Of a DNA stretch of 7,935 nt, positions 1 through 7,935 are shown in pieces. A program made the translations under genes and the position numbers. The notes below the pieces were generated by a model that worked only from the letters and a program-made list of their open reading frames with translations, made no database searches and was not told where the DNA came from. How positions within the stretch are numbered: the first letter of the stretch is position 1; each line of letters opens with the position of its first letter. This DNA comes from an uncultured Bacillales bacterium (lineage in GTDB: Bacteria; Bacillota_I; Bacilli_A; RF39; UBA660). The stretch lies in NCBI GenBank assembly GCA_947089915.1, contig CAMUMB010000055.1:1-7935 (forward strand), written 5' to 3'.

Positions 1-94
1 ATGTCATTTTCATATAAAAAGATTCAATCCCATAGAAAAAGTGATTGAACCCTATAAGTAAATATTTTTGGTTTTATTTTAGAAGAAAATAGGA

Positions 95-115
95 GTTACA
101 GATGAAATCTGTAAC
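95..115. other. Perfect 9-bp inverted repeat (GTTACAGAT-gaa-ATCTGTAAC) in the upstream intergenic region; function unknown
   Basis: Arms 95..103 and 107..115 are exact reverse complements with a 3-nt loop. No T-run follows directly (the T-run starts near 137), so a terminator role is not supported. Confidence 0.4.
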
Positions 116-207
116 AAAACCATCGCAGAAATGTGATTTTTTTTAATAAATATTGTTTTTGTATATTTTGTTAAAATTTATTCTTTAAATTATAACAATC
201 TAGGTAT

Positions 208-236
208 TTTAAAAAAATAATAACTTGTGCTATAAT
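208..236 (+). promoter_or_regulatory. Candidate sigma70-type promoter with extended -10, upstream of the avd-like gene
   Basis: TGcTATAAT at 228..236 is an extended -10 with a perfect TATAAT at 231..236. A weak -35-like TTTAAA sits at 208..213 with a 17-bp spacer. AGGAG (244..248) and the start codon follow. AT-rich background makes chance matches likely. Confidence 0.4.
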
Positions 237-258
237 ACCAACTAGGAGTTGTGATGTA

Positions 259-843
259 GTGTTGCAGGTAAATAGAAATGGTAGTTTAAAAATACCAAAG
301 CAAATAGAACAATATGAAACAAGTGCAAATAGTATAGAGGATGCAGTTGCAATCAAAAAAGCACTTACGAGTGTAAATGAACAAAAAATAAATATAAATA
401 CTTTAAGAGAAAAATTAGAAATAGAAGATCAGGAATTAGAAAGAATTTCTAAGATTCCCTTTAATGCAAATGATTTAATGGTAATTACGGTTGTAAAGAA
501 GTTAGGTGCTTATGTAATTGCAGTAACAGAAAAATCTCCTAAAAAGTTTAGAGGCGTATTTGTTAATAGAATGCAGAATTATTGTTTAGATACATTAGAA
601 TTATTATTAGAAGCAAATTTGATTCGAATGGACTCGGAAACAAATAAAATAAATCGAGAACAATTTCAAAAAGAGGCTATTGTGAAGCTAAAATTACTGG
701 GATATGTTGCGATGATTGCAGAGAGTTCTAATTGTATTTTGAAAAAACAGTATAAACAAATATCCATTCAATTAGCGGAAGCCATTAATTTAATTGCTGC
801 TTGGAAAAAGAGTGATGATGAAAGATGGCGCAGGAAGAGTTAG
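259..843 (+). CDS. avd: Avd-like accessory variability determinant (four-helix-bundle protein) with an N-terminal extension of about 73 aa
   Basis: The C-terminal ~120 aa (DLMVITVVKKLGAYVIAVTEKSPKKFRGVFVNRMQNYCLDTLELLLEANL...KLKLLGYVAMIAE...QLAEAINLIAAWKKS) resemble DGR Avd / four-helix-bundle proteins. The gene lies directly upstream of the TR and RT. AGGAG at 244..248 favours GTG 259 or TTG 262 as the start. The only internal in-frame ATG (478) has no SD. Stop is TAG 841..843. Confidence 0.75.
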   Translation: MLQVNRNGSLKIPKQIEQYETSANSIEDAVAIKKALTSVNEQKININTLREKLEIEDQELERISKIPFNANDLMVITVVKKLGAYVIAVTEKSPKKFRGVFVNRMQNYCLDTLELLLEANLIRMDSETNKINREQFQKEAIVKLKLLGYVAMIAESSNCILKKQYKQISIQLAEAINLIAAWKKSDDERWRRKS

Positions 844-922
844 GATTTTAGATTGAAAAATCTTTAATTAAGGAGAAAATTTACATTTGTGCATTTTTGT
901 TTTCGGCCCCTTTGTTGTTCTT

Positions 923-996
923 CGCGCGCGTCGTTAATAAAAACGGTAATAAGAACTAAAATAATGTTAGAAAACGGGATGTAGGAGCCCGTCCAG
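923..996 (+). repeat. DGR template repeat (TR)
   Basis: Noncoding and located between avd and the RT. It aligns ungapped with 2522..2595 (offset 1599), 63/74 identical. At 9 of the 11 mismatches this copy carries A. It contains 28 adenines and is flanked by GC-rich blocks (CGCGCGCGTCG and CGGGATGTAGGAGCCCGTCCAG) in an otherwise AT-rich locus. Confidence 0.9.
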
Positions 997-1164
997 ATTC
1001 ACTTTTGAAGAGATTTTAAAAAAATCTAGAAAACAGATGAGAGAAGTTTATTTTTGGTAAAATAAGCCTGTATTGTAAGGTGAAGGAATTTTCTTCTTTT
1101 CTAATCGCTAAAAGAGAAGTCTTAGATGCGATGGAAAAATAATAAACACTCACACAAACAATGA
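997..1164 (+). ncRNA. Putative spacer (Sp) segment of the DGR RNA between the TR and the RT start; boundaries uncertain
   Basis: The position matches the Sp region of the characterised Bordetella phage BPP-1 DGR RNA (TR followed by a spacer before brt). It contains three AT-rich hairpins: 1011..1027 (AGATTTT-aaa-AAAATCT), 1048..1065 (TTATTTT-tggt-AAAATAA) and 1093..1119 (CTTCTTTT / AAAAgaGAAG with a 2-nt bulge). No credible ORF. Confidence 0.4.
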
Positions 1165-1218
1165 ATGAATACATTCCTTGGGCGTTATATGGGGTGTTTC
1201 TTTTTTGAGGGAGTATTT

Positions 1219-2250
1219 ATGAATTTAGAAGAAATTTTTACATTTGAAAACTTATATGAAGCATATCAAAATTGTCGAAAATCCAAACAACACAAAGGAG
1301 AAGTGATTCGGTTTGAGACCAATTTGGCTGTTCATATACATGAGTTAATGCAAGCTATTTATAAACGTAAATATCAATTGGGTTCTTATAAAATATTTTA
1401 TATTTATGAACCTAAAGAGCGTTTAATAGAAGCTTTGCCGTTTAAAGACAGAGTGGTGATTCGCTGCTTTTGTGATGTTTGTCTAAAACCAAAAATAGAA
1501 AAGAAATTGATCTATGATAATTGTGCTTGTCGAAAAGGGAAAGGTACTACGTTTGCAATCAATCGGCTACATCAATTTTTACGAAAAATTTATAATAAAG
1601 TAAAAAGTAATCAATTTTATTTTTTAAAATGTGATATTCATAAATACTTTCCAAGCATTCATCATGATATTTTAATCACCTTACTTGAAAAAATTGAGTT
1701 TTCGGAAGATGAAATGTGGATGATTCAAAAATTAATCCAGGAGCAACCTAATGCGGCGAATAGAGGTTTGCCTCTTGGAAATCAATCGAGTCAGTGGTTT
1801 GCCCTTTATTATTTAAATGTAGTAGACCGATATATCAAAGAAGTGCTGCAAGTAAAGTATTATGTAAGGTATATGGATGATATGATTTTAATTCATGAGG
1901 ACAAAAAGTTTTTAAAGTATTGCAAGAATGAGATAGAAAGAATATGCCATAATGAGTTAAAATTAGAACTCAATCAAAAAACACAAATTGGTATGGTCAA
2001 AAATGGAATTGATTTTTTAGGATATCGACATATTGTTACGCCTAGTGGAAAATTGATTATGAAATTGCGATATTCTTCGAAACAGAGAATGAGAAAACAT
2101 TTAAAAACAATGAATAAATTATATCAAAAGGGAATTGTTGATGAAACTTATGTATTGATTCGAAAAAATGCTTTTTACAATCATATAAAAAATACAAATG
2201 AATATTTTCTTAGACAGACAATTTTATTGGAAGATATAAATAAACTGTAA
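1219..2250 (+). CDS. DGR-type reverse transcriptase
   Basis: YMDD catalytic motif at 1870..1881 (VRYMDDMILIH). DGR-signature LGNQSSQ ([I/L]GxxxSQ) at 1774..1794. Other RT motifs include PKERLIEALPFKDRVVIRCF, ACRKGKGT, LKCDIHKYFPSIHH and GIDFLGY. The start was moved to ATG 1219 because it is preceded by GAGGGAG (1207..1213) and the typical N-terminus MNLEEIFTFENLYEAY begins there. The track's 1165 start adds an implausible leader. Stop is TAA 2248..2250. Confidence 0.9.
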   Translation: MNLEEIFTFENLYEAYQNCRKSKQHKGEVIRFETNLAVHIHELMQAIYKRKYQLGSYKIFYIYEPKERLIEALPFKDRVVIRCFCDVCLKPKIEKKLIYDNCACRKGKGTTFAINRLHQFLRKIYNKVKSNQFYFLKCDIHKYFPSIHHDILITLLEKIEFSEDEMWMIQKLIQEQPNAANRGLPLGNQSSQWFALYYLNVVDRYIKEVLQVKYYVRYMDDMILIHEDKKFLKYCKNEIERICHNELKLELNQKTQIGMVKNGIDFLGYRHIVTPSGKLIMKLRYSSKQRMRKHLKTMNKLYQKGIVDETYVLIRKNAFYNHIKNTNEYFLRQTILLEDINKL

Positions 2251-2312
2251 AAAAATGACAAAAGGTGTCTACAATGAGCAAAATTATGTTATGATATAGG
2301 TGGTGATTTACT

Positions 2313-2558
2313 ATGTTAGATTTTACTTTTTTGGAAACAGAACAAATATTTGGTGATAAACAATTAGATATATTTAAATTGTATGGAACCAAATGTGCAA
2401 TTTCGGATTTTGCTATTTTATTAGGTGGTTATGTAGCAAATAGTACATATACAAGTGAAGGAAGTACATTAAAAGACCGTACTGGTTGGTGGTGGACAAA
2501 GACTTCAGATGGAGATAATGACGCGCGCGTCGTTAATGGAGACGGGTCTAATTACTAG
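2313..2558 (+). CDS. N-terminal fragment (81 aa) of the DGR target, ending at a TAG inside the VR
   Basis: ATG 2313 is preceded by AGGTGGTGA (2298..2306). The product ...GWWWTKTSDGDNDARVVNGDGSNY* carries the front part of a WWxx[ST]...G[VA]RPAL-type module. The stop TAG 2556..2558 falls in the middle of the variable positions. Confidence 0.7.
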   Translation: MLDFTFLETEQIFGDKQLDIFKLYGTKCAISDFAILLGGYVANSTYTSEGSTLKDRTGWWWTKTSDGDNDARVVNGDGSNY

Positions 2559-2595
2559 AATGATGTTAGAAAGCGGGATGTAGGAGCCCGTCCAG
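2522..2595 (+). repeat. DGR variable repeat (VR) within the target gene
   Basis: Cognate of TR 923..996. Substitutions occur at TR-A positions 939, 940, 942, 948, 949, 954, 959, 963 and 974 (VR 2538, 2539, 2541, 2547, 2548, 2553, 2558, 2562, 2573). Two non-A differences lie at VR 2546 and 2552. The first 13 bp and last 22 bp are invariant. Confidence 0.9.
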
Positions 2596-2601
2596 CTTTA
2601 C
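2574..2601 (+). promoter_or_regulatory. IMH-like element (initiation of mutagenic homing) at the 3' end of the VR
   Basis: A 22-bp GC-rich block, CGGGATGTAGGAGCCCGTCCAG, is identical in TR (975..996) and VR (2574..2595) even though it contains 4 adenines. The next 6 nt diverge (TR ATTCAC vs VR CTTTAC), as expected for an IMH*/IMH pair that sets directionality. Confidence 0.5.
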
Positions 2602-2636
2602 CATACTCTTCTATCTCTTCCATCTCCTCGAACGAA

Positions 2637-4397
2637 GTGAGAGGGGCATGTGGACTTCCTGAAGTTGACTTTGGAGAATTACCACAAACTGCTATGGAAG
2701 ATAATTTTGCAAGACAATTGGAAAATACATACCAAATTGGTATGAAAGAAATAGGAAACAAATATACAACAGATTCTGTTGCTTATGATGATTATGACAC
2801 GCCTTTTCAGGCACGCGAATTTACTGAGTACGAGTATATGCAAGAAAGATATATTCGCTTTTTGGGTGATAAAAATGGAGCAGGAAAGGTGCTTTCAACA
2901 GGAGCGAAGGTAGAAATTGGGAAACCATATTGGGTGAAAGTAGAAAAAGTTCGTTGGTTCGTAGATAAAAAGAATGATATTGTGCTTCCTAAAATCATTT
3001 TGTTTGCAGGTGTGCAATTCAATCAGATTAGAAATTATATGGGAGATTTTGCAAATACAGATATCAAAAAATACATGGATAATTGTTTTGCAAAAGAAAT
3101 ACAGACAAATAAAGTGGATTACCTGATAACTGATACCGATACCAGTATTCGTAAAACAAGACTTCAAAATCTCAATCCAGATACCACAATCGCATCTGAA
3201 AGAAGAAAAATGACATATACCGAAATGATTCAAAATTGGATTGAAGCAGGGGAATCAGTACTATTAAGAGGACCATCTGGAATTGGAAAGACAGAACGTA
3301 TTCGTAAATTATATCCAAATTTAATCTATCTCAAATTGACCAACAATATGCTTCCTGAGAAGGTAGTTGGTTCTAGTAACTTTCAAACGGGGCAAAATAT
3401 TCCACCTAATTTTGCCAAGCAGGCGATTTTAAATTGTGCGACGGAAGAAGAAAAGAAAATGGTTGCAAGTAATATTCAAAGCTTATATGACCTTGCTGAT
3501 ACCATATATGAAAGATCAAAGACAAGTAATGAAAAAATTGTAATATTATTAGATGAACTTTTGAATGTAAAACCAGTGGTACAATCACTTGTCTATACCC
3601 TCGTTTTGAATCGGATTGTAGAAACAGGAAGTGGTTTAAAGTTACCAGAAAATACCGTGATTGTGGCGACTGGAAATCCGCAAAAATATTCTAGTGTTGC
3701 AGAAGAATTAGCAGAACCACTAGAAAAGAGATTTGATCATATATTAGATATGGAACCACGTGTTTCAGAATGGATTTATGAATATGCAATTCCAAATCAG
3801 TTGCATCCTTCTGTGATTGGATATATTGTTTCAAAATATATGGAAAATCAAAGAAGAGAAGATATTCCTTCGATTGGATACTTTTATGAAGAACCAGAGG
3901 TAGGGGAAAGGGATAAAGATCGTAATGGTTGTCGTGGTAGAACCAATGACCCAAGAGGGTGGACATCCATTTCTCATACACTATGTGCATTTGAAAAAAA
4001 TTTAGTAGAAGGCAAATATGTGGGTAAAGATGTAGAACATTTATTGCAAATGTCTGTCGCAACCAAATTGCGTGAATCTTGGGCAAGAGAATTTTTGAAT
4101 TATTATAATATTCCAACACTTACCATAGAACAAGTTGTGAGTAAAACCTATACTCAGGCTGATTTACCAAGAAATACCAATGAGCGATATGCTTGTATGG
4201 TGGCATTGTTGTTAGCTGATGAGAACCAAGTGGGTACTTGTCGAGAATTTGTTCAGCAATATTGTGATCCTGAATATCGTGAATTATATGATTTACTATG
4301 GGTTGGAAATGATGAGATGCGGATGCTGAAAATGAGTGAATTACAACAATTAGAATTGCAAAAGAGGCAAATAGAGGGAGTTGGAAAAAGTAGATGA
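2637..4397 (+). CDS. MoxR/AAA_5-like AAA+ ATPase; downstream part of the DGR target frame, with doubtful independent initiation
   Basis: Walker A GPSGIGKT at 3270..3293. Walker B ILLDE with D-E at 3552..3557. Sensor-1-like VIVATGNP and an Arg in PLEKRFDHI. The frame is open from 2559. Stop TGA 4395..4397 overlaps the next start (ATGA). Confidence 0.8.
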   Translation: MRGACGLPEVDFGELPQTAMEDNFARQLENTYQIGMKEIGNKYTTDSVAYDDYDTPFQAREFTEYEYMQERYIRFLGDKNGAGKVLSTGAKVEIGKPYWVKVEKVRWFVDKKNDIVLPKIILFAGVQFNQIRNYMGDFANTDIKKYMDNCFAKEIQTNKVDYLITDTDTSIRKTRLQNLNPDTTIASERRKMTYTEMIQNWIEAGESVLLRGPSGIGKTERIRKLYPNLIYLKLTNNMLPEKVVGSSNFQTGQNIPPNFAKQAILNCATEEEKKMVASNIQSLYDLADTIYERSKTSNEKIVILLDELLNVKPVVQSLVYTLVLNRIVETGSGLKLPENTVIVATGNPQKYSSVAEELAEPLEKRFDHILDMEPRVSEWIYEYAIPNQLHPSVIGYIVSKYMENQRREDIPSIGYFYEEPEVGERDKDRNGCRGRTNDPRGWTSISHTLCAFEKNLVEGKYVGKDVEHLLQMSVATKLRESWAREFLNYYNIPTLTIEQVVSKTYTQADLPRNTNERYACMVALLLADENQVGTCREFVQQYCDPEYRELYDLLWVGNDEMRMLKMSELQQLELQKRQIEGVGKSR

Positions 4398-4774
4398 ATC
4401 AAGAATTAGTAGAGTTACAACGAGGGAGTTCGACTGGTGTTATTATACTGGATTGTATGTATCAAGACTTAGGACAAACTGCATATATGGATGCTAGTAT
4501 AGAAGATACCTATTTGTTTCGTTATGGAAATCCCATTTTCAAATCTAAATTGGAACAACTTTCTAGCAATGGAAAAACAACGTATTTTGTCATTCGCAGA
4601 ATAGATGCATTAATTACGGTACAACAAGAAAAATATATTGGACTCATCAAAGATAGAGAATTTATGGGGTATTCAATTCCTTCCAATGTCATTATTGTTT
4701 TTACAGTAGCATCAAAAGAATCTTTAAAAAATATTGCACCCAATCTTTATCAATTGTGTGTTGTAGCATTTTAG
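4394..4774 (+). CDS. Hypothetical 126-aa protein, translationally coupled between the ATPase and the VWA-peptidase genes
   Basis: The ATG at 4394 overlaps the ATPase stop (ATGA). Its TAG stop (4772..4774) overlaps the AGGAG RBS of the next gene. No recognisable motif and no TM segment. Confidence 0.65.
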   Translation: MNQELVELQRGSSTGVIILDCMYQDLGQTAYMDASIEDTYLFRYGNPIFKSKLEQLSSNGKTTYFVIRRIDALITVQQEKYIGLIKDREFMGYSIPSNVIIVFTVASKESLKNIAPNLYQLCVVAF

Positions 4775-4785
4775 GAGAGTTGTCT

Positions 4786-6021
4786 ATGGATTTAATACAT
4801 GAAGCAAAAAATATTCTAATGATTCGCTATCCTCGTTTTGCAAGCTTACTTGCAGCTACACCAATTGAATATAATTCTCATTTAAAGTATCATACAGGGG
4901 CAACGGATGGAAAAAAGATTTTGATTGACCCTGATTATTTTGCAAGCTTAGAACTTGAGGGACGTTTATTTCTCTTGGCGCATGAGCTTATGCATATGCA
5001 ATTTCTCCATATGTATCGTTTAAAGAAGAATGGAAAAAAGAAAGATTTAGATACATGGAACGAAGCTACCGATGCAATCATCAATGCCAATTTGGTAAGA
5101 GATGGATTTCAGATAGAAGAAGATTATTTTACTTATCCAGACGCGTTATCCTATACAGCGGAACAATTATATGAAAAATTATTAAATGAAGATGGGAAAC
5201 ATACGGAATCTTGGAAGGATGATCATAGTCTTTGGGAAAAAGCTTTTGAAAAAATGGAAAAAGGAGAAGATCAGGTTCAAAAACTAGATACAGAAATTGA
5301 TGAAAAACAAGAATTTAGAGAAAATAGAGAGGAACGCATTGCAAAAGCCAAAAAGGATTTGATGAAGAAAAAAGAACAAGTATTAAAGGAATGGGAAAAA
5401 AATAAGATTCAAAATGAATTAGGCACAGTAGGGGAAGAAAATAATGCGATTGATTGGCTACTTCTTTTAAGAAGAGAAGTCAATAAAGATGAGATTATTT
5501 GGAGTAATCGACGTTCCATTGCTGAAAATAATTATGCATATAGATTAGAGGAAGACGAGTTAGAAGAAGAAGCGGAAACAGAGGTTTTAATTGATGTTTC
5601 TGGGTCAGTTAGTTTAAATTTAGTAAAATTTTTTTTAAGGATGATCAAGCCGATATTACACCATTCCAAATTAAAAGTAGGGTGTTTCAATGAAAAATAT
5701 TATGAAATGGTAGAAATAAAATCAAATAATGATATTGATCATTTTGTGATTCCAAAAGAATCGCATAAGTATGCATGGACAGAAGACTGGGATTTGGCTG
5801 TTCGTTCTTTCACAAGAAAAAAAGAAATCAATAAAATTATATTTACCGATGGAATACCCGGTCCAGGAAATATGCCCAAAGAAGATTTAAAAAATGAAAA
5901 TGTAATTTGGATTGTTTACGGAAATCCAAATTTCAAACCATGTTGTGGAAAGGTAATTCAAGTGACAGAATCAGAGTTGTTGGGAATGATGTTATCAGAA
6001 GAAAAGGGAAAGATAAGATAA
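4786..6021 (+). CDS. DUF2201-type protein: N-terminal HExxH putative metallopeptidase domain plus C-terminal VWA-like domain
   Basis: ATG 4786 is preceded by AGGAG (4773..4777), so the track's 4756 start is rejected. HELMH lies at 4981..4995 within LLAHELMHMQFLH, followed by WNEATDAIINANL, as typical of the DUF2201_N peptidase-like domain. The MIDAS-like DVSGS lies at 5593..5607. A Lys/Glu-rich linker separates the two domains. Confidence 0.8.
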   Translation: MDLIHEAKNILMIRYPRFASLLAATPIEYNSHLKYHTGATDGKKILIDPDYFASLELEGRLFLLAHELMHMQFLHMYRLKKNGKKKDLDTWNEATDAIINANLVRDGFQIEEDYFTYPDALSYTAEQLYEKLLNEDGKHTESWKDDHSLWEKAFEKMEKGEDQVQKLDTEIDEKQEFRENREERIAKAKKDLMKKKEQVLKEWEKNKIQNELGTVGEENNAIDWLLLLRREVNKDEIIWSNRRSIAENNYAYRLEEDELEEEAETEVLIDVSGSVSLNLVKFFLRMIKPILHHSKLKVGCFNEKYYEMVEIKSNNDIDHFVIPKESHKYAWTEDWDLAVRSFTRKKEINKIIFTDGIPGPGNMPKEDLKNENVIWIVYGNPNFKPCCGKVIQVTESELLGMMLSEEKGKIR

Positions 6022-6025
6022 GAAT

Positions 6026-6084
6026 AAGCTTCAAGAAATTATGATAATTTTAGAGAAAGATATTGAAGCTTTCTTTTTTATTTG
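6026..6084 (+). terminator. Rho-independent terminator ending the DGR-target operon
   Basis: Perfect 9-bp arms AAGCTTCAA (6026..6034) and TTGAAGCTT (6063..6071), followed by TCTTTTTTATTTG. The 28-nt loop is large but contains an inner AAATTA-tga-TAATTT hairpin. Confidence 0.6.
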
Positions 6085-6172
6085 ATATCATATATTTATG
6101 AGTTTGATGTATCAATATCAATTCGTAAAAAGGAATAAAAAGTGGTTGAATAATGAAAAGAGGGAGTGGACT

Positions 6173-6700
6173 ATGAACAATTATATCGATGAAAATACAC
6201 CATTTGGAATTCAAAATCAACATAATTATTCAACAATTATACCAACGGGAGAATGTATTACTTATTTAGTACAATATTGTGCGGATGAATATCAAAAATT
6301 CACTGCGCTTACAGATGAAGTAGAAAAAAACAAAGAACAACATGGTGAATACAATTACAGTTTTAAAAAAGGAGCGTCTCTTTTTGAAATTGCAATTAGA
6401 GGAAAACAGTATAGTAATATTGTTTGTGAAAATTTTCAGGAATTTGAAGATGCTATCCAAGAAAAAGGATTAAAAGACATTAGTAGTTTAGAAATCAAGA
6501 TGCATTTGAATTTTAAAAGAGATCGGGAAGAGGTAGGAACAGAACATCAAAATGAATTTGTCATTACCTTTAGACCTTATGAAATTTCTTTTTCAAGAAA
6601 ATCAAATTACAATGAAACAATGATGAATCAAATAGAAACCAATATTGATGATGTTTTAAGAAGATTCCCATCTATCAATAGCATTTTTTCAGCAAGGTAG
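6173..6700 (+). CDS. Hypothetical protein (175 aa)
   Basis: ATG 6173 is preceded by AAGAGGGAG (6158..6166). The track's 6098 start lacks an RBS and lies next to the terminator. No family recognised. Confidence 0.6.
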   Translation: MNNYIDENTPFGIQNQHNYSTIIPTGECITYLVQYCADEYQKFTALTDEVEKNKEQHGEYNYSFKKGASLFEIAIRGKQYSNIVCENFQEFEDAIQEKGLKDISSLEIKMHLNFKRDREEVGTEHQNEFVITFRPYEISFSRKSNYNETMMNQIETNIDDVLRRFPSINSIFSAR

Positions 6701-6706
6701 GGGTTT

Positions 6707-7012
6707 ATGGCAATTACCAAAGAATACAAAGATTATGTATTAGAAAAATTAGAGTGTTTGGACTTTATTACATACCGTCCTATGATGGGTGATTATCTAT
6801 TTTATTACCAAAATATTTATTTTGGTGGAATGTATGAAGAAGAACGATTTTTAATAAAAGAAACTTCTAGTAATCAAAAATACAATTTGAAAGAGGCGCT
6901 TCCTTATAAAGGGGCGAAATTGATGTATTGGGTAGAAGATTTAGAAGATATGGAACGGCTCAAAAATATGATTATAGATACTTGTAAGGATTTAAAGCCA
7001 AAGAAAAAATAG
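6707..7012 (+). CDS. TfoX N-terminal domain-like protein (101 aa)
   Basis: YRPMMGDYLFYYQNIYFGGMYEEERFLIKET resembles the TfoX_N core (MFGgyglY..g..fa.i.d..lylK). The RBS AAGGTAGGGG (6694..6703) overlaps the previous stop. Confidence 0.55.
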   Translation: MAITKEYKDYVLEKLECLDFITYRPMMGDYLFYYQNIYFGGMYEEERFLIKETSSNQKYNLKEALPYKGAKLMYWVEDLEDMERLKNMIIDTCKDLKPKKK

Positions 7013-7013
7013 G

Positions 7014-7037
7014 ACAGATTTCAAAATCTGTTTTTCT
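7014..7037 (+). terminator. Rho-independent terminator
   Basis: A 7-bp stem, ACAGATT (7014..7020) and AATCTGT (7025..7031), has loop TCAA and is followed by TTTTCT. It lies directly after the TAG stop at 7010..7012. Confidence 0.7.
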
Positions 7038-7059
7038 GATATTGTAAGGAGATTGTTTT

Positions 7060-7935
7060 ATGATTTTATTTGTCAGTGGTCGAACAGATATTGTAGCTTT
7101 TTATTCAAAGTGGTTTCTGAAACGATATCAGGAAGGCTTTGTAGACGTTAGGAATCCCTTTTATCCGAAACAAATTAGCCGTATTTATTTTGAGGATGTT
7201 GATGCAATTCTGTTTTGTACGAAAAATCCCATTCCAATATTAAACCATTTAAAATCAATTGATAAACCAATTCTTTTTCATGTAACATTAACACCTTATT
7301 TAAAGGAAATTGAACCCAATGTTCCTCCAAAGGGAAAAATAATAGAAGCGATTAAACAACTATCTTCTATTGTGGGAATTGAAAATTTATATATTCGTTA
7401 TGATCCTATTTTCCTAAGTGAACAATATAATATTTCTTATCATAAAAAAGCATTTGATCATATGTGCTCTTTATTAAATGGTTTTGTAAAGAACATTATT
7501 ATCTCTTTCATCGATGATTATCAAAATGTAAGAAAAAATAATTCAATTTTAAAAATAAGAAATTTTAAAGCAGAAGATTATCAAGAAATTGGTCTTTCTT
7601 TTTGTGAGAGTGCTCAGAAAAATGGAATGACAGTACAAACTTGTTTTGAGAAAAATAATTTAACACAATATGGATTTGTAAAAGGGGAGTGCTTGTCTAA
7701 AACCTGTGCTTATCAACTCACTGGTAAAACGTATAAAAAATGGAATGCCAGAAAATGCGGATGTGTAGAAATGGTCGATATTGGTGTTTATAATTCATGT
7801 AAACATTTTTGTAAGTATTGTTACGCTAACTATGATGAAAACCTAGTTATGTCTAATTTTAGTCAACATAATTCCAATAGTAGTTTATTGATTGGCGATT
7901 TAAAACAAGATGATGTTATTAAAAGAAGAAAATGA
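7060..7935 (+). CDS. DUF1848 domain protein
   Basis: Motifs include SGRTDIVAFYSKWF, VRNPF, ILFCTKNP, IRYDPI and the C-terminal Cys cluster CGCVEMVDIGVYNSCKHFCKYCYAN, all characteristic of DUF1848. RBS AAGGAG at 7046..7051. Stop TGA falls at the window end (7933..7935). Confidence 0.8.
   Translation: MILFVSGRTDIVAFYSKWFLKRYQEGFVDVRNPFYPKQISRIYFEDVDAILFCTKNPIPILNHLKSIDKPILFHVTLTPYLKEIEPNVPPKGKIIEAIKQLSSIVGIENLYIRYDPIFLSEQYNISYHKKAFDHMCSLLNGFVKNIIISFIDDYQNVRKNNSILKIRNFKAEDYQEIGLSFCESAQKNGMTVQTCFEKNNLTQYGFVKGECLSKTCAYQLTGKTYKKWNARKCGCVEMVDIGVYNSCKHFCKYCYANYDENLVMSNFSQHNSNSSLLIGDLKQDDVIKRRK

Follow-up and report, generated by a model that had tools for sequence, protein, structure and literature searches.

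Some MoxR-vWA-VMAP systems have a vWA component with a fused CLec or lectin-type domain that is diversified by a diversity-generating retroelement (DGR), and these systems have been proposed to act as antigen sensors (Kaur et al. 2020, PMC7159879; Dore et al. 2024, PMC10907252). Among candidate phyla radiation (CPR) bacteria, CLec-AAA fusions are named as the commonest DGR target architecture in the summary that PMC10907252 gives of Paul et al. 2017, and Midasin-type AAA proteins also occur among CPR targets (PMC5758913). A related pairing, a MoxR ATPase with a metallopeptidase-vWA protein, is found in group 2.2 jumbo phages, where a role in virion assembly is predicted (Iyer et al. 2021, PMC7824862). 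Here we analyze a 7,935-nucleotide stretch of DNA from an uncultured Bacillales bacterium (contig CAMUMB010000055.1, positions 1 to 7,935; hereafter the window), in which a DGR rewrites a module at the N-terminus of a cytoplasmic MoxR-like AAA+ ATPase. The ATPase gene is followed by genes for a small protein, which we call p126, and for a putative metallopeptidase joined to a von Willebrand factor A (VWA)-like domain. The unexpected finding is that the template of this DGR encodes stop codons, and that the window copy of the target seems to be in the resulting off state.

The reading we favor is that of a DGR-diversified intracellular sensor mounted on an AAA+ ring and coupled to the peptidase-VWA protein, likely forming a conflict system with stop-based switching. 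We give this reading an even chance of being right. Other explanations are weighed below beside the evidence that bears on each of them.

A DGR and its target ATPase

The window holds a complete DGR. An Avd-like accessory gene (positions 259-843, 194 aa) precedes a non-coding stretch (844-1164) that contains the template repeat (TR; 923-1002), followed by a reverse transcriptase (RT) gene (1165-2250, 361 aa) and by the target gene (2313-4397), delimited by an open reading frame (ORF) scan, whose 694-codon frame carries the variable repeat (VR; 2522-2601, residues 70-97). All relevant ORFs of the window lie on the plus strand, as do both repeats. The RT matches RVT_1 (67.4 bits) and contains LGNQSSQ and YMDD motifs, the SQ dipeptide being a hallmark of DGR RTs (PMC3521204). 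The accessory protein scores 24.3 bits with Pfam bAvd (cut-off 40) and 28.8 bits with the NCBIfam model DivGenRetAVD (cut-off 80), both sub-threshold. Its position, size and conservation upstream of the TR are nevertheless compatible with Avd, and about 25 related loci have a homologue upstream of their TR and RT.

The TR and VR, direct repeats of 80 nt each, are 84% identical. On the 5' side of their fixed 3' boundary, the TR base is an adenine at 9 of 11 mismatches (p=0.004), with an A-rich mutagenized zone at 939-974; across 23 TR/VR pairs from related loci, the same holds for 269 of 283 mismatches (p=4e-104). Two mismatches in the window lie off adenine, 947 T>G (opposite 2546) and 953 G>T (opposite 2552), and both are absent from the closest relative. 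At the 3' edge, the TR reads CCAGATTCAC and the VR reads CCAGCTTTAC (window 996-1002 and 2595-2601, within the coding sequence for ARPALPYS). This difference is identical at every locus examined and resembles the boundary that fixes homing direction in other DGRs. Neither a hairpin nor a cruciform was found 3' of the VR: DNA folding of 2575-2670 gave a z-score of +1.48, and no inverted repeat follows the VR.

Comparison with the closest relative indicates that the element was recently active. Locus L001, from a metagenome-assembled genome (MAG) labeled "uncultured Bacillales" (contig CANSPQ010000002.1, L002), is about 95% identical to the window at the nucleotide level across the region that they share. 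The TR of L001 is identical to that of the window and its VR is different, and its VR changes within the mutagenized zone lie almost only at adenines. These observations together point to homing after the two lineages split. More broadly, three VR alleles occur among otherwise near-identical proteins from different samples, and about 12 codons of the target module are rewritten by the DGR.

What does this DGR rewrite? The preliminary description of this DNA proposed a cytoplasmic ATPase bearing a variable domain, and the TR/VR pair, the ATPase family match and the hydropathy profile all agree with that proposal. A search with the target frame, read through its one internal stop, returned more than 1,400 protein clusters, most of them 695-742 aa long with 98-100% query cover and 58-65% identity. 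Because these intact homologues span nearly the whole frame, the fusion of N-terminal module and ATPase is ancestral. In the family alignment, a block of hypervariable columns coincides exactly with the VR and is flanked by invariant ARVV and GARPALPYSS.

The VR-bearing module itself (2313-2605, about 97 aa, ending GARPAL) resembles the C-terminal part of DUF6273 and Fib_succ_major. In 8 of 39 homologues, residues 55-96 align with positions 125-168 of the DUF6273 profile, and Fib_succ_major matches the module in three of the 39. All of these matches are sub-threshold, and it is on them that we call the module putatively lectin-like. One family member, P0002 (962 aa), carries the entire N-terminal module twice in a single protein.

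Behind the module, alignment and modeling delineate a beta-rich middle domain and linker with conserved EVEYGEYPQ...W.VEPIKW motifs (2606-3257). The AAA_5/MoxR-like ATPase core follows (3258-3734), and then a helical C-terminal region (3735-4397) comprising the lid and a conserved YFYEEPEVG...GRTNDPRGW domain, for which no family match was found. The Walker A (GPSGIGKT, residues 320-327, positions 3270-3293) and Walker B (VILLDE, residues 410-415, positions 3540-3557) motifs, both recognized in the preliminary description, are invariant in the family. The AAA_5 match exceeds its cut-off (26.9 bits vs 22, residues 316-474) and recurs in 39 of 39 homologues; AAA_3, the MoxR-proper model, scores 19.3 bits against a cut-off of 27. 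A crude hydropathy test found no signal peptide or hydrophobic segment in the target, whose highest 19-residue Kyte-Doolittle mean is 1.51 and whose N-terminus is acidic, as expected from the earlier claim that membrane segments are lacking. Judged by its sequence, then, the target is a cytoplasmic AAA_5/MoxR-like ATPase with an N-terminal, DGR-diversified module.

Structural modeling is compatible with the AAA+ assignment. We used AlphaFold2 to model P0009, an intact homologue 65% identical to the window target. The mean predicted local distance difference test score (pLDDT) was 75.7: the N-terminal 270 residues scored mostly 85-95 with dips to 60-69, the VR-bearing module within them 69-94 (mostly at least 85), and the ATPase part 50-80. 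Foldseek comparison of the full-length model with the PDB returned almost only AAA+ ATPases, all weakly (best E=8.8e-4), and the MoxR-like structure 2r44 was likewise a weak match (target-normalized TM-score 0.31). Against viral models, large-phage AAA_5/COG0714 MoxR-like ATPases matched, with E=9.5e-9 at best. A Gp24-like protein of Klebsiella phage RaK2 gave the best fold match to the ATPase, and gp566 of phage G also matches. A sequence search of the target family against solved structures gave nothing useful.

Stop codons in template and variable repeats

The target frame is interrupted once only, by a TAG at 2556-2558 within the VR. This stop ends an 81-aa ORF (2313-2558), the 5' part of the target frame, and a 586-aa ORF (2637-4397) continues in the same frame. 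Exactly opposite the TAG, and in register with the VR reading frame, the TR carries TAA (957-959); the VR of L001 has TAA at this codon. Because the template holds a stop at the very codon of the VR stop, the TAG is a nonsense allele written by the DGR, and not a matter of decoding. Intact homologues have mostly Y, W, C, S, F or L in this column, corresponding to the TNN codons expected from a mutagenized TAA.

The preliminary description joined the module to the ATPase on the premise that the stop is read as sense. We considered an alternative code in which TAG is decoded and ruled it out. TAG, TAA and TGA all serve as ends of neighboring ORFs (four, two and one of the ORF stops around the target, respectively), which indicates the standard code, and the template has TAA, not TAG, at this position. 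Counting the VR stop, TAG ends five of the eight listed ORFs. Another round of mutagenic homing, rather than decoding, would remove the stop.

Template stops recur across the family. In-frame stops are present in the TRs of about 10 of 24 family DGRs, at three codon positions. The codon interrupted in the window is TAA in the TRs of the window, L001 and L006, and TGA in those of L019 and L073; a second codon is TAA in L005, L025, L040 and L056; and a third is TAA in L031. Among about 33 VRs, seven contain stops (the window, L001, L006, L019, L031, L043 and L056), the stop of L043 being a change from AAA in the TR to TAA. The composition of DGR-targeted codons normally prevents nonsense outcomes (PMC10907252), and this family is an exception to such nonsense-avoiding templates. 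Recurrent TR stops contradict that accepted statement and, if selected, would point to a new regulatory use of DGRs.

With a stop codon written into its target, the window copy would be switched off. The effect is unlikely to end there: since the next gene overlaps the target's own stop codon, ending translation 1.8 kb too early would be expected to reduce expression of the genes downstream as well.

A plainer explanation is that the locus is decaying, with the stop as the mark of a pseudogene, a DGR that is dead in this lineage, and an operon without function. The VR stop is shared by the window and its 95%-identical relative, the window shows the two off-adenine mismatches noted above, and some related loci are truly degraded. 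In L006 (8180-8300) and L067 (8183-8300), a gap is needed to align the VRs to their own TRs and the target is frameshifted beyond the VR, so that both copies look truly inactivated. In L028, a TR/VR hybrid with a TR-type 5' flank and a VR-type 3' flank lies right after the Avd gene (7870-8060), and the RT gene and target N-terminus are gone, as expected from homologous recombination between TR and VR. The window itself looks different. It retains intact frames for Avd, RT, ATPase, p126 and DUF2201, and the VRs of the window and its relative differ almost exclusively at adenines over an identical TR, which argues for homing after divergence. Moreover, the stop lies exactly at the TAA codon of the TR and is TAG in the window, which puts its arrival down to mutagenic homing and not to random decay. 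We therefore regard decay as very unlikely.

The two partner proteins

Two genes follow the target closely. An ATGA (4394-4397) is shared by the stop of the target and the start of p126, and the p126 stop (TAG, 4772-4774) lies inside TAGGAGAG, an AGGAG-containing site upstream of the ATG at 4786; both junctions are as the preliminary description gave them. The third gene probably begins at this ATG (4786-6021) and not at the GTG at 4756, from which the ORF would encode 421 aa (4756-6021).

The product of the third gene is of the DUF2201 type, with a zincin domain, a low-complexity linker and a VWA-like domain. It matches DUF2201_N at 77.8 bits (cut-off 23.2) and contains HELMH (4981-4995) and DVSGS (5593-5607) motifs. 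H66, H70 and H75 are invariant, E67 is kept in at least 90% of sequences, and the family profile matches the solved minimal metallopeptidase MJ1213 (E=3.8e-5). At the other end, a complete metal ion-dependent adhesion site (MIDAS) pattern (D270-x-S272-x-S274, T332, D355) is invariant. The VWA-like model PF09967 matches 11 of 38 homologues at E<0.01; in the window protein it aligns over positions 3-122 of its 123 but stays sub-threshold (15.5 bits vs 26.4). No informative NCBIfam match was found. The protein thus reads as a zincin metallopeptidase joined to a putative VWA-like domain with a MIDAS. The earlier claim of a combined HExxH and MIDAS-bearing VWA protein draws support from the DUF2201_N match, the invariant residues and the PF09967 matches among homologues.

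The linker of this protein (window ~5200-5480, alignment columns 140-370) is rich in Q, N, E, K and D. It varies greatly in length, giving proteins of 411 to more than 700 aa, and contains two conserved islands, DDHSLWE and DE..EF..NR.ER.

p126 (4394-4774, 126 aa) is a small standalone protein. The preliminary description called it unknown, and by family assignment it is, with no Pfam or NCBIfam match. Its fold is more telling. The AlphaFold2 model (pLDDT 86, predicted TM-score 0.83) was compared with the PDB using Foldseek, and the best 50 matches listed are all AAA+ ATPases, including MgsA, FlrC, ClpX, HslU and PspF. Among these 50, the alignments cover about 130-175 columns, equivalent to one AAA+ module, with probabilities mostly of 0.9-1.0 and query-normalized TM-scores of 0.34-0.57 (best about 0.5-0.57). 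No Walker A motif or P-loop is present in the p126 sequence. The prediction for p126 is therefore an alpha/beta core of the AAA+ type that lacks a P-loop.

Sequence comparison does not extend this link to known AAA+ proteins. Profile comparison of p126 with the target ATPase gave a weak local match to the segment after Walker B (probability 13%). Run with HMMER against 1.84 billion representatives, the p126 profile gave 183 matches at E<=0.001, and none of the 150 of these that were listed is a canonical full-length AAA+ protein, all being 43-192 aa long. Since these relatives are all small, it is the predicted fold that carries the AAA-like assignment.

These partners invite a targeted-degradation explanation, in which a foreign protein would be caught by the variable module, unfolded by the ATPase and cut by the peptidase, with destruction of the ligand and survival of the cell. 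Combining a binding domain with an AAA+ motor and a zincin would follow the scheme of proteases such as FtsH or Lon, with the parts distributed here among different genes, and AAA+ unfoldases (ClpX, HslU, ClpC, FtsH and proteasomal ATPases) are among the fold matches. Those fold matches are generic to AAA+ proteins, however, and MoxR-family ATPases are known as remodelers rather than processive unfoldases. We consider targeted degradation doubtful.

Distribution and genomic setting

Scanning species-representative genomes for related loci yielded 75 distinct loci, all in gut or rumen MAGs labeled Bacilli, Clostridia, Tenericutes, Christensenella and similar. The order target, p126, DUF2201 is well conserved across them: among the 56 loci whose downstream sequence extends for 3 kb or more, 52 have a DUF2201-type gene downstream of the target, and 47 have both p126 and DUF2201. 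An RT gene lies upstream in 31 loci, 29 with a VR-type module and two without. Some loci have multiplied their targets. L007, L012 and L013 each have two in tandem, with both VRs diversified from a single TR, and L029 has three tandem target genes. More distant homologues keep the middle domain and the core of ATPase, p126 and DUF2201, while their N-terminal domains are of other kinds or absent. Such N-terminal domain swapping would be expected if the sensor can be exchanged. In Clostridia-type loci, a further ORF (about 150 aa) occurs either in the gap between target and p126 or upstream of p126 (L007, ~10230-10690; L077, 191-667); the window is without it.

The window is a chromosomal cassette of a gut Firmicutes bacterium, with a G+C content of about 30%. 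A near match to it was not found among 50,697 phage records, and a phage origin was ruled out on this absence together with the chromosomal context. A promoter and terminator scan returned promoter-like sites at chance frequency and no usable operon boundary. Three genes lie 3' of the DUF2201 gene: one for a 200-aa protein without a family match (6098-6700), one for a 101-aa, weakly TfoX_N-like protein (6707-7012), and one for a DUF1848 protein (288 bits; 7060-7935) whose ORF ends on the last base of the window. Only in L001 and L006, the closest relatives, are these genes syntenic, which makes it probable that they lie outside the system.

Possible functions

How might these parts work together? 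In the sensor reading that we favor, the ATPase would presumably form an oligomeric ring like other AAA+ proteins, displaying the hypervariable modules as sensors of intracellular ligands. ATP hydrolysis would couple ligand binding to the peptidase-VWA partner, docked through its MIDAS as in other MoxR-VWA pairs, and as output the peptidase would either be switched on or be handed the bound ligand. p126 could act as a non-catalytic regulator or adaptor of the ring. The system would most likely serve conflict with phages or other mobile elements. Finally, with stop-prone codons in the TR, each homing event would have a substantial chance of writing a stop, and the operon could thereby be turned on and off reversibly. 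The DGR-diversified sensors published for MoxR-vWA systems provide a precedent for such a sensor.

A bolder form of this idea combines all of its elements. The cassette would be a programmable intracellular recognition-and-proteolysis machine, with AAA+ ring tips that bind substrate or ligand and are rewritten by the DGR, a dead AAA+ subunit and a MIDAS-anchored zincin, in which TAA, TGA and stop-prone codons, deliberately kept in the TR, serve as a reversible DGR on/off switch that silences the translationally coupled operon in a large share of homing events, by phase variation. We offer this version tentatively, as a possibility with the odds clearly against it. If true, DGR-driven phase variation would limit self-damage from a hypervariable protease system.

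Several observations weigh against a conflict system of this kind. Neighbors of the related loci are housekeeping genes (proS, lspA, rluD, murB, a class-I aminoacyl-tRNA synthetase of the tRNA-synt_1c type, nrdD and CTP synthase), and no defense island was seen at the related loci examined; one locus has a toxin gene and recombinase genes nearby. Neither p126 nor the DUF2201-type protein matches a PADLOC model, and the ATPase matches only DolB, locally in the AAA core. In the P0009 model, confidence in the AAA+ part is only moderate and its PDB matches are weak. Ring formation, MIDAS-mediated binding and the role of p126 are drawn by analogy. Both the window and its closest relative carry the stop, which may reflect loss of function in the lineage. 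Distant homologues of the ATPase and peptidase-VWA proteins, moreover, occur in virulent phages, where the pair is a predicted virion-assembly chaperone (PMC7824862).

The same observations lend themselves to a chaperone or maturation module, in which the MoxR-like ATPase and the peptidase-VWA protein take part in folding, assembly or processing of a cellular or prophage protein complex and the variable module only widens the range of clients. MoxR-VWA pairs such as NorQ/NorD and RavA/ViaA figure as established maturation factors in the accounts we draw on. Besides the virion-assembly prediction and the housekeeping neighbors, homologous pairs (21-27% identity) sit adjacent to each other in N4-like and rV5-like phages (ZC03 and CR9). 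A dedicated chaperone, however, has no obvious need for a hypermutating client-binding site. Neither a prophage, nor phage structural genes, nor a candidate client operon was found beside the cellular loci examined, and tandem expansion of targets and swapping of N-terminal domains fit a recognition arms race better than a fixed client. We think a chaperone role improbable.

In the phages themselves, the homologues of the peptidase-VWA protein are labeled "HNH endonuclease" in RefSeq (ZC03 gp65, L080 3429-4586; CR9 gp127, L081 4725-6278), which looks like a mis-annotation. The ZC03 pair lies just downstream of annotated transcriptional regulator and RNA polymerase genes, and not among structural genes.

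A defense role for the sensor-ATPase cassette is thus plausible and unproven. The preliminary description's proposal of a conflict system draws on the DGR-ATPase-peptidase architecture, and the neighborhood survey confirmed RT genes upstream of the target in part of the family and turned up no defense islands. Profile and fold searches are consistent with the ATPase, peptidase and putative VWA/MIDAS assignments.

Comparison with known systems

The cassette is built of known parts, in a wiring that we did not find described, and a literature search found no published link between DUF2201 and DGRs. The preliminary description took the target to depart from typical DGR targets. This holds for its N-terminal VR, an arrangement seen in just 3 among some 370 DGRs (Wu et al. 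2018, PMC5758913), but not for its cytoplasmic, NTPase-linked nature, which has published precedents (PMC7159879, PMC10907252).

With canonical targets such as Mtd of Bordetella phage and TvpA of Treponema, the locus shares the set of TR, VR, RT and an Avd-like gene, adenine-specific mutagenesis, and a VR ending in a G-x-R-P-A-L type motif typical of lectin-fold VRs. Unlike those targets, its VR is internal to a long ORF and does not lie at the C-terminus, no secretion signal is present, and the TR holds a stop and stop-prone codons.

CPR CLec-AAA targets, as far as the summarized accounts describe them, share with the window an AAA ATPase carrying a fused, DGR-diversified domain and a predicted intracellular location. 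In category g of the CPR targets (Wu et al. 2018, PMC5758913), the NTPase motif lies upstream of the VR, an order that is reversed here. RT lineages and hosts also differ, and the descriptions compared report no peptidase-VWA partner for the CPR targets.

The jumbo-phage pair shares the two-gene core, in which an AAA_5/MoxR-like ATPase stands beside a protein with an N-terminal metallopeptidase and a vWA domain. Several differences separate the two. In ZC03 and CR9, the ATPase gene is followed directly by the peptidase-VWA gene, whereas p126 lies between them in the window, and no RT is annotated near the pair at these two loci. The best-matching phage ATPases, at about 350-520 aa, are too short to hold the 270-aa N-terminal module of the window target. 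Finally, the jumbo-phage pair resides in phage genomes, while the window cassette is chromosomal. The likeness nonetheless links the cassette to an unexplained phage module, since the ATPase and peptidase-VWA pair is widespread in phages.

MoxR-vWA-VMAP systems follow a similar logic. They share a DGR-diversified binding domain, lectin-type there and putatively so in the window, a cytoplasmic MoxR-like AAA+ ATPase with a vWA protein, a proposed peptidase output, and a proposed path from sensor to ATPase to effector. The preliminary description had pointed to these ternary systems, yet the identity does not hold. The variable module is N-terminal and on the ATPase here, but C-terminal and on the vWA protein there; in the window, the VR lies in the ATPase gene and the vWA protein has none. 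The peptidase is a zincin fused to the vWA domain here, and a trypsin or caspase on the VMAP protein there. The third position is taken by the 126-aa AAA-like protein instead of VMAP, and no VMAP-type Pfam match was obtained among the window proteins, with the presence of VMAP models in the Pfam set used being unconfirmed. Hosts differ as well: cyanobacteria and gammaproteobacteria there, and here gut Firmicutes that are documented by MAGs alone and for which multicellularity has not been reported.

So far, NTPase-coupled intracellular sensors that DGRs diversify have been tied mainly to multicellular bacteria and CPR lineages, and this family would extend the idea to abundant gut Firmicutes. 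Its wiring is distinct, in that the ATPase itself bears the variable domain and a zincin peptidase joined to a VWA-like domain is the proposed output, and the six-gene cassette offers a compact system in which to ask how a hypervariable site couples to an AAA+ motor.

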